A DNA stretch of 47,961 bases from an uncultured Methanosarcinales archaeon. GTDB taxonomy: Archaea; Nanobdellota; Nanobdellia; Woesearchaeales; CAZKBD01. The first letter of the stretch is position 1, and every line of letters begins with the position of its first letter. The stretch spans positions 1 through 47,961 of the forward strand of contig CAZKBD010000005.1 in NCBI GenBank assembly GCA_964550945.1. The letters run 5' to 3'. Positions 18,390-47,685 of this stretch are shown piece after piece. A model generated the notes under the pieces. The model made no database searches, was not told the DNA's origin, and worked only from the letters and a program-made list of their open reading frames with translations. The translations under genes were made by a program, and so were the position numbers.

Positions 18390-18830
18390 ATGCAATTGCA
18401 GATGCAGGATGCAAAGCTTGGCAAAAATTGTATTTTTTGCAGAATCATCAAGGGAGAGATTCCATGCACCAAGGTTTATGAAGATGATAATCTGATTTCT
18501 TTTCTTGACATTGCTCCTGCAAATAAAGGCCATTGCCTTGTTATGCCCAAGAATCATTACGAAACTTTATTGGACGCACCTAACCTTGATTTGGCTTTAA
18601 TAATAAAAAAATCAAAGGAGATTGCAAGGGCAATGAGCTCTGCATTAGGAAACCAGGGCTTTAATCTTTTGGTCAATAATAAAAAAGAGGCTGGCCAGGT
18701 TGTGTCTCATGTTCATGTTCACCTTGTTCCTAGATTTGCTGGTGATGGGATATCATTCAATTGGAAGCCTAAGAAATATATGAATGATGAGATAGATGAA
18801 TTTGCAGATAAAATAAAAAGTTTTTTATAG
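18390..18830 (+). CDS. HIT-family hydrolase (intact HVHVH triad)
   Basis: CIFC and AGQVVSHVHVHLVPR. Confidence 0.93.
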   Translation: MQLQMQDAKLGKNCIFCRIIKGEIPCTKVYEDDNLISFLDIAPANKGHCLVMPKNHYETLLDAPNLDLALIIKKSKEIARAMSSALGNQGFNLLVNNKKEAGQVVSHVHVHLVPRFAGDGISFNWKPKKYMNDEIDEFADKIKSFL

Positions 18831-18855: not shown

Positions 18856-18978
18856 GCCGCTGTAGCTCAGCCTGGTTAGAGCGCTACGCTCATATATTTG
18901 AGCGCTGAGGCTTAGGCCGATGATTGACTCGCTAACTGGGTTACGTAGAGGTCGGGAGTTCAAATCACCCCAGCGGCA
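18856..18978 (+). tRNA. elongator tRNA-Met(CAT) with 48-nt intron at 37/38 (18895-18942)
   Basis: Acceptor GCCGCTG/CAGCGGC+A; stem CTACG/CGTAG; BHB helix CTCA/TGGG. Confidence 0.9.
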
Positions 18979-19014
18979 TCTTCTTATTTTTTGGGTGTTA
19001 AAATTGGCGTTAAA

Positions 19015-47524: not shown

Positions 47525-47685
47525 TGCGGAGGAGAGGATTCGAACCCCTGTAGGCACTAAGCCAATAGGTGTCTTGCAATCACAGCTGGAATCAGCTCAT
47601 CACACCTGTGAACGACCTAAGCTTGGACTGATTCCACCAAATCATTGGAATCCTCTATCCCGTTTGGCCGCTCCGGCACCTCCGC
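47525..47685 (-). tRNA. tRNA-Leu(TAG) with two introns (30/31 47623-47654, 37/38 47571-47615)
   Basis: Acceptor GCGGAGG/CCTCCGC+A; spliced arm ATAGG-CT-TAG-GA-CCTAT; long variable arm. Confidence 0.85.

Follow-up and report, generated by a model that had tools for sequence, protein, structure and literature searches.

Can the intron of an archaeal tRNA gene direct 2′-O-methylation of the anticodon in its own transcript? The question is raised by a tRNA-Met gene within a 47,961-nucleotide stretch of DNA (here called the window); a preliminary description had read the intron of that gene as a minimal guide with a single K-turn, directed at C34 of the same tRNA. We find that the element is real, conserved, and selected, and that it works like a box C/D guide, yet is a non-canonical member of that group, with a short guide and no second box pair. 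Judged from sequence comparisons, the intron very probably guides Cm34 in some mode, and probably does so in cis within the precursor as a half box C/D guide; the methylation itself we infer.

The gene (18856-18978, plus strand) encodes an elongator-type tRNA-Met(CAU) that scored 50.7 bits against the Rfam tRNA family, the sole family to reach its gathering score in a scan of the locus, and ARAGORN with introns enabled called it as Met CAT with a 48-nt intron. The second CAU tRNA of this genome (G000), on contig C98, has features that we take to mark an initiator type. The window's tRNA matches the intron-bearing tRNA termed elongator in Nanoarchaeum equitans (Randau 2012; PMC3491384). Numbering guide bases upstream from box D′, with D-1 adjacent to it, we assigned the following parts.

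18856..18894, plus strand: 5′ exon, tRNA positions 1 to 37 (Rfam, ARAGORN)
18884-18894, plus strand: exon positions 27 to 37
18888..18892, plus strand: target strand, tRNA positions 31 to 35; C34 (18891) is the 2′-O-methylation site predicted by the D+5 rule (PMC2584109)
18895..18942, plus strand: 48-nt intron at the canonical 37/38 position
18899..18904, plus strand: guide; D-6 to D-2 (18899-18903) pair with exon 35 to 31, and D-1 (18904) can pair with C30, a pair that is not conserved
18905..18908, plus strand: box D′, CTGA (ATGA is commoner among relatives)
18909..18918, plus strand: hairpin closing the K-turn, GGC-TTAG-GCC; its stem letters vary among relatives and the pairing is kept
18919..18926, plus strand: three-base bulge G-A-U (18919-21) and box C′ ATGATTG (18920-26)
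18928..18936, plus strand: 3′ intron strand, pairing with the 5′ part of the intron and the guide (h′ helix) in the splicing fold
18937..18943, plus strand: bulge-helix-bulge central-helix strand TGGG, pairing with exon 32 to 35 in competition with the guide, and 3′ bulge
18943..18978, plus strand: 3′ exon, positions 38 to 73

The neighbors of the gene are a HIT-domain gene and a cupin gene, neither of which shows a link to this tRNA. A TATA-like run (18822-18829) overlaps the end of the HIT gene, its last base lying about 26 bases upstream of the mature 5′ end, the leader may be very short or absent, and a T-rich run follows the gene at 18980-18993. In the whole genome only 12 to 14 tRNA genes were detected, many having non-canonical introns or being unassembled, and no tRNA-Trp was seen among those detected.

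The motifs lie where the preliminary description had placed them: TGAGCG at 18899-18904, CTGA at 18905-18908, CGATGA at 18918-18923, and the exon complement CGCTCA at 18887-18892. As it had also noted, the fifth base upstream of CTGA (G18900) stands opposite C34 (18891). Its choice of CGATGA as the box C′-like element had to be replaced. A usual K-turn has a three-base bulge ending in a purine and U, two sheared G·A pairs, and then a U·U pair. Because the GGC/GCC stem closes at 18909-18918, box C′ is ATGATTG (18920-26), three bases further 3′; this register gives the bulge G-A-U (18919-21), tandem G·A pairs 18922/18908 and 18923/18907, and then U·U. The CGATGA register leaves no bulge, and the first G of that word varies among the 168 relatives described below (G in 111, A in 31, T in 25, and C in 1). 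Box C′ agrees with the consensus RUGAUGA (PMC2584109, PMC9670817) at 5 of 7 positions, and the window copy has C·U where the box C/D consensus has C-G. The pattern gave 0 matches in 100 shuffles of the window, a weak test, since the pattern was built from the site itself.

Relatives of the gene were collected with patterns based on exons alone, the intron motif being unused. In the window's own order, the pattern matched 116 of 221 genomes (120 rows); 116 rows were examined (not counting one truncated contig and the rows of three unpublished genomes), and 6 non-tRNA rows were dropped. This order sample comprises 110 tRNAs, 95 with an intron and 15 intronless. Another pattern, likewise confined to exons and allowing a gap of 36 to 66 bases, was applied GTDB-wide and gave at least 120 loci, 119 of which could be analyzed. 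The motif, defined as TGAG, two bases, NNGA, a spacer, and NRTGA, was present in 92/95 introns of the order and, among the matches listed, in 98/119 GTDB-wide; after removal of duplicates it was found in 168 of 191 distinct intron-bearing CAU tRNAs among the matches listed. Absence of the motif from relatives would have spoken against a guide; the motif is conserved there. Sorted by record title, again among the matches listed, the motif occurred in Micrarchaeota (42/47), Woesearchaeota (19/21), Aenigmarchaeota (2/2), and Hadarchaea (2/2) and was not found in Altiarchaeota (0/3) or Thermoplasmatota (0/3). Several records titled "uncultured Methanosarcinales archaeon" (L114, L090, L049, L102, and others) share tRNA genes with the window's order, and these titles look wrong.

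The distance from the first TGAG to the GA of box D′ was a fixed four bases in all 92 motif introns of the order sample. We also searched the introns for a K-turn blind to the guide, which found one in 91/95 introns of the order and in 99/119 of the GTDB-wide matches listed. With an innermost-stem rule, a full five-pair helix at D-5 accompanied it in 81/91 and 88/99 (the latter among the matches listed), compared to 0.01 to 0.02 occurrences of K-turn plus guide per set of shuffled introns. A cruder rule that took the longest stem gave the full helix in 76/90 and 59/100, and both guide-blind rules mis-picked some sites. For covariation a guide-anchored rule was used, which by eye mis-anchors one row (L115). 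A phylum-wide motif pattern (a tally of 127/201) was discarded for its many chance matches.

The search pattern fixes the GA and TGA columns, and the informative quantities are therefore the matching fraction, the stem, and the U·U pair. Among the matches listed, two pairs of the stem form immediately after box D′ and abut the bulge in 160/168 relatives, the U·U pair is present in 85/168, and a G-C pair after it is rare (14/168), box D′ being usually ATGA. In the loop-type relatives (G104, G166, L136, L142, and L154) a short loop replaces the stem, and CTGA is followed by a near-perfect RTGATG(A) in the same register. No second, terminal box C/box D pair is present in the window's intron. Among the matches listed, a box-C-like word at or upstream of the guide occurred in 2/168, and a CTGA 8 to 14 bases past box C′ in 17/168, so the remark that a second C/D pair is not evident holds for the window and for nearly all relatives. 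One further candidate element was rejected, a 5′ GTGATGA of A31-type introns as box C, whose letters vary with exon 31 and at D-1. Another, a small conserved hairpin spanning the 3′ splice site, is not supported; of its pairs one is fixed by construction, one occurs at chance level, and one lies above it.

Exon base 31 was left out of motif anchoring. Among the matches listed, D-2 pairs with it in 164/168 relatives (G-C 64, A-U 100), compared to at most 102/168 for other nearby intron columns. The four exceptions are G·A twice, A·A once, and A·C once, the last in a mis-anchored row. Two genomes of another order (G289 and G293) show a third pairing, U31 with A at D-2. Two rows from one family (L169 and L170, in G136 and G188) have A at D-2 facing G31, which leaves a four-pair guide. 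An EF-2 tree was built with FastTree from 70 of the 80 genomes searched, 62 of them with the motif, and across these 62 it shows 18 changes at position 31. Thirteen independent pairs could be compared across well-supported branches; the guide changes along with base 31 in 12.7 of them on average and in none against it (sign test, P ~2e-4). D-1 behaves differently, pairing with exon 30 in only 43/168 and forming G·G in 88 among the matches listed. In solved RNPs, crystal structures among them, the first spacer position stays free of substrate (PMC9670817, PMC7229835), and the unpaired D-1 of the introns matches that arrangement. Of the six guide pairs first proposed, the five from D-6 to D-2 with exon 35 to 31 therefore count, and the sixth, at the base next to box D′, does not, as it is not conserved as a pair. 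The conserved complementarity sets C34 opposite D-5, the fifth base upstream of box D′.

Relatives fall into two classes by the length of the 5′ linker. The long-linker class comprises 60 copies among the matches listed, mostly from Micrarchaeota, plus Hadarchaea, Aenigmarchaeota, G304, and G320. Counting G·U and allowing one bulge, at least nine pairs form in 52/60 of these listed copies and ten in 40 (mode 10, range 9 to 11 bp), while shuffled linkers brought 13.8 copies to nine on average and 23 at most. This fold-back runs past base 37 into intron bases 1 to 3, and intron base 1 covaries with base 9 (U-A 27 and A-U 9 of 42), so that the target is the unspliced precursor. In the short-linker class, to which the window belongs, 5 to 8 pairs form in 111/113 and exactly 5 in 65/113 of the matches listed. 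The window copy engages 5 bp, below the 8- to 12-nt antisense element of a canonical box C/D sRNA (PMC2584109). With archaeal RNPs in vitro, a 9- to 10-bp duplex is modified efficiently and an 8-bp duplex supplied in trans is not (PMC7229835). A short-linker duplex of 5 to 8 bp is credible only as an intramolecular hairpin.

That hairpin is present in the unconstrained lowest-energy fold of the window precursor. Under constraint the guide fold reached -42.2 kcal/mol and the splicing fold -35.3 kcal/mol; the folding model takes no account of K-turns, proteins, or modifications. Exon 32 to 35 is needed by both the guide and the central helix at the splice sites, and the two folds are thus mutually exclusive. 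The splicing fold of the window has the archaeal bulge-helix-bulge layout of a four-pair central helix, two three-base bulges, and flanking helices; the central helix joins CTCA with TGGG, two of its four pairs being G·U or C-G variants. Among the matches listed, the central helix has 3 to 4 pairs in 141/168, and h′ pairs exceed those of shuffles. The form that acts is probably not a stable circle of the excised intron.

The genome encodes Nop5 and fibrillarin (adjacent, on C66), L7Ae (C77), and the splicing endonuclease (C4); a genome lacking fibrillarin or Nop5 would have spoken against a guide, and both are encoded. Nop5 (L001:356-1291 on C66) has 311 amino acids and keeps the coiled coil and C-terminal domain, residues 53 to 311 aligning with Pyrococcus Nop5. 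Its N-terminal, fibrillarin-binding part is about 35 to 50 residues shorter than in Pyrococcus and Sulfolobus Nop5. We considered a Nop5 without coiled coil as the cause of half guides and dropped the idea, since only the N-terminal part is shorter. A strict four-box sRNA scan of the genome gave 0 matches, and a scan for a separate guide to the same site gave 4 short ones.

Fibrillarin was found in 206 of the 221 genomes of the order. Among the 105 fibrillarin-positive genomes of the order sample there are 92 motif introns, 3 introns without the motif, and 10 intronless genes. The fibrillarin-negative genomes of the sample that have an elongator tRNA-Met are all intronless (5/5), as are G098 and G348; Nop5 was not found in these seven either. 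They span four families, with four of the seven from one family, and the link rests on about four lineages. Fibrillarin and Nop5 were also not found in two motif-bearing genomes, G115 and the genome of L125. For G115 (130 contigs) the absence of fibrillarin may be an assembly gap, as two genomes of its genus have it. Among 50 of the at least 120 GTDB-wide loci, 49 genomes had fibrillarin, including all 18 picked by eye as motif-less, and having the enzyme thus does not require the motif. No elongator tRNA-Met was found in most of 42 fibrillarin-negative genomes (of 63) or in 9 of 10 further genomes. Within the class, fibrillarin was not found in whole families (for instance f40, 0/4; f125, 0/5; f127, 0/4; f128, 0/4), which suggests repeated loss of C/D methylation.

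The window holds a second case. A tRNA-Leu(UAG) gene, which ARAGORN called as Gly, has introns at 30/31 and 37/38; its exon reading is confirmed by relatives without the first intron.

47525..47685, minus strand: two-intron tRNA-Leu(UAG)
47615-47571, minus strand: 37/38 intron with the same K-turn; box D′ 47600-47597, guide 47607-47602

The Leu guide pairs across the 3′ splice junction and places C39 (47569) at D-5. A Leu(UAG) pattern search matched 57 of 301 genomes, and 51 rows were examined after removal of rows from unpublished genomes and of two that are evidently not tRNAs; two doubtful rows were kept. The K-turn is present in 32/51 of these introns, and among the 32 the best D-5 site is C39 in 26, position 38 in 3, and position 37 in 3. 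The same cassette is aimed at a different base, still at D-5, which lends independent support to the methylation reading and to action within the precursor. In 6 of the 32 part of the guide lies in the exon and would be lost from an excised intron, so that these guides cannot work in that form. In two of the Leu introns (L435 and L439, in G406 and G011) the guide begins in the exon and the best register sets A38, not C39, at D-5. Three genomes have G at D-7 of the Leu(UAG) intron where exon 41 is C.

The observations suggest the following course of events. The nascent precursor would fold the guide back onto its own anticodon as a hairpin; L7Ae would bind the K-turn and recruit Nop5-fibrillarin, and fibrillarin would 2′-O-methylate C34. 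The RNA would then refold to the bulge-helix-bulge, with the guide parked against the 3′ strand of the intron, and be spliced. In this scheme the covalent tether would compensate both for the lack of a second C/D motif and for the shortness of a duplex that could not hold in trans. The enzyme would have to act on a hairpin whose loop spans 4 to 6 bases. Support for the proposed minimal guide to its own C34 comes from conservation, fixed spacing, covariation with base 31, the encoded machinery, and the Leu sibling.

Four other accounts of the intron were weighed. The precursor or the excised intron could direct the same guide to the same site of another molecule. Such action in trans is favored in vitro for the tRNA-Trp intron (PMC2584109), the intron of N. 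equitans persists as an abundant, stable RNA (PMC3491384), and whatever pairs as a hairpin can also pair between two precursors as a dimer. We nevertheless consider it unlikely: among the matches listed, 111/113 short-linker copies have 5 to 8 pairs, no more than the duplex that was not modified in trans, the Leu guides with exon bases cannot work as excised introns, and the fold-back hairpin appears in the unconstrained lowest-energy fold. A role in splicing alone, in which the K-turn binds L7Ae and the fold-back merely regulates or chaperones splicing with no methylation guided, would suit the mutual exclusion of the two folds and the two motif-bearing genomes without detected fibrillarin or Nop5. 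It leaves unexplained the invariant spacing that sets C34 at D-5, the free D-1, the centering of long-linker copies on about 10 bp, the D-5 placement of another base in Leu, and the missing intron in seven fibrillarin-negative genomes, and we hold it to be distinctly unlikely.

The family could also be a real guide of which the window's 5-bp copy is a weakened or idle remnant. The short duplex and the C·U in place of C-G would fit such a copy, as would the absence of the intron in 10 of the 105 fibrillarin-positive genomes of the order and the loss of the motif in 3. The covariation, though, was measured within this short-linker order, so the pairing is under active selection there, and the window copy has the consensus CTGA, the U·U pair, and an intact stem, making decay of this copy quite improbable. 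Least probable, to the point of being hardly tenable, is that TGAG is one strand of the intron's own h′ helix, with the exon complementarity a by-product. A complementary CTYR word does lie downstream of box C′ in 42/113 short-linker introns among the matches listed, and in the splicing fold of the window copy the guide pairs with the 3′ intron strand. However, the word is missing in 55/55 long-linker introns, and D-2 is Watson-Crick paired with that strand in 16/42, versus 164/168 for exon 31, all among the matches listed; covariation with exon 31 largely refutes the by-product reading. Guidance of Cm34 in cis by the precursor's own intron remains the preferred reading.

The nearest known case is the elongator tRNA-Met of N. 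equitans, whose 66-nt intron yields a stable, abundant RNA that was proposed in 2012 to be a C/D sRNA with "no prediction" for its target (Randau 2012; PMC3491384); the suspicion that a related case had already been described in Nanoarchaeota was correct. It shares with the window the host tRNA, the intron position, and the order of elements (guide, CTGA, hairpin, bulge, GA). One genome of our set (G304) carries the letters of the N. equitans intron; there C at D-2 faces G31 of the exon, and the fold-back has 9 bp. Compared to the available portion of that paper, the C34 self-target, the covariation, the spread over several archaeal groups, and the 5-bp form are additional here.

The pre-tRNA-Trp intron guide of Haloferax volcanii and Pyrococcus (sR50) is likewise a 37/38 intron acting on its own tRNA by the D+5 rule; it guides methylation of positions 34 and 39 before splicing (PMC2584109, PMC7994747). 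In H. volcanii it has 103 nt, with C/D and C′/D′ motifs and two guides for two sites, whereas the tRNA-Met intron has one K-turn, two boxes, and one guide of 5 to 10 bp for one site, and here sites 34 and 39 are served by separate introns of different tRNAs. For pre-tRNA-Trp, in vitro work favors action in trans, and cis or trans has been called open (PMC2584109). The same target, Cm34 of elongator tRNA-Met, is served in Haloferax, in Pyrococcus (sR49), and in humans (SNORD97/SCARNA97) by independent RNAs (PMC2584109, PMC6601510); the pairing of the Haloferax Met guide also takes in intron bases of the precursor, as in long-linker copies. In the genomes examined by Grosjean 2008, the guide for tRNA-Trp invariably lies in the intron, and the one for tRNA-Met is invariably encoded separately (PMC2584109). 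Cm34 has been linked to keeping C34 from pairing with A (Wolff 2020).

Single-motif RNPs were reported as active and not site specific (Hardin and Batey 2006; PMC1635284). Later work found half guides, including C′/D′-only ones (PMC7229835), to methylate site-specifically in vitro and asked whether they work in cells (Yang 2020, PMC7229835; Wang 2022, PMC9670817), and Yang et al. thought C′/D′-only RNAs unlikely to assemble there (PMC7229835). Such halfmer C/D RNAs have in common with the Met intron one K-turn and one guide. They are engineered, or are weakly conserved human C/D-like RNAs, and have separate substrates, whereas the Met intron is natural, conserved, of C′/D′ type, and joined to its target. 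The available portions of PMC7994747, PMC6601510, PMC3218864, PMC3608112, and PMC6239191 hold nothing contrary. In the literature covered, which takes in the smaller part of the subscription papers, we found no report of C34 as the target of a tRNA-Met intron or of the element across DPANN, and an earlier report may exist.

If the reading holds, these introns would give the orphan N. equitans intron RNA a target and would overturn the statement, in the part of PMC2584109 available, that the guide for tRNA-Met Cm34 is never intronic. The precursors, at about 120 nt, would be natural substrates for two questions, namely, half C/D RNAs in cells and cis versus trans action of intronic guides. Guidance would also offer a reason for keeping some tRNA introns in reduced genomes, and C/D scans that demand four boxes and 10-base guides would miss the whole group. 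More tentatively, and with somewhat less than even confidence, small archaea may have a general class of self-guiding precursor tRNAs in which a single-K-turn cassette is re-aimed (C34 in Met, C39 in Leu(UAG)), acts strictly in cis with as few as 5 bp, and makes splicing await the methylation fold as a checkpoint. Members of such a class would be the first natural, conserved C′/D′-only guides demonstrated to function in cells.

Some tRNA-Met genes depart from the common layout. In one family, long AT-rich, motif-less introns (L238 and L237, in G171 and G216) replace the guide intron present in L239 (G112), and fibrillarin is present. Other elongator tRNA-Met genes, such as L015 (G058), L031 (G049), and L319 (G032), have extra introns besides the guide intron; these sit in the anticodon stem, D arm, variable region, or T arm, and standard finders mis-call such genes.
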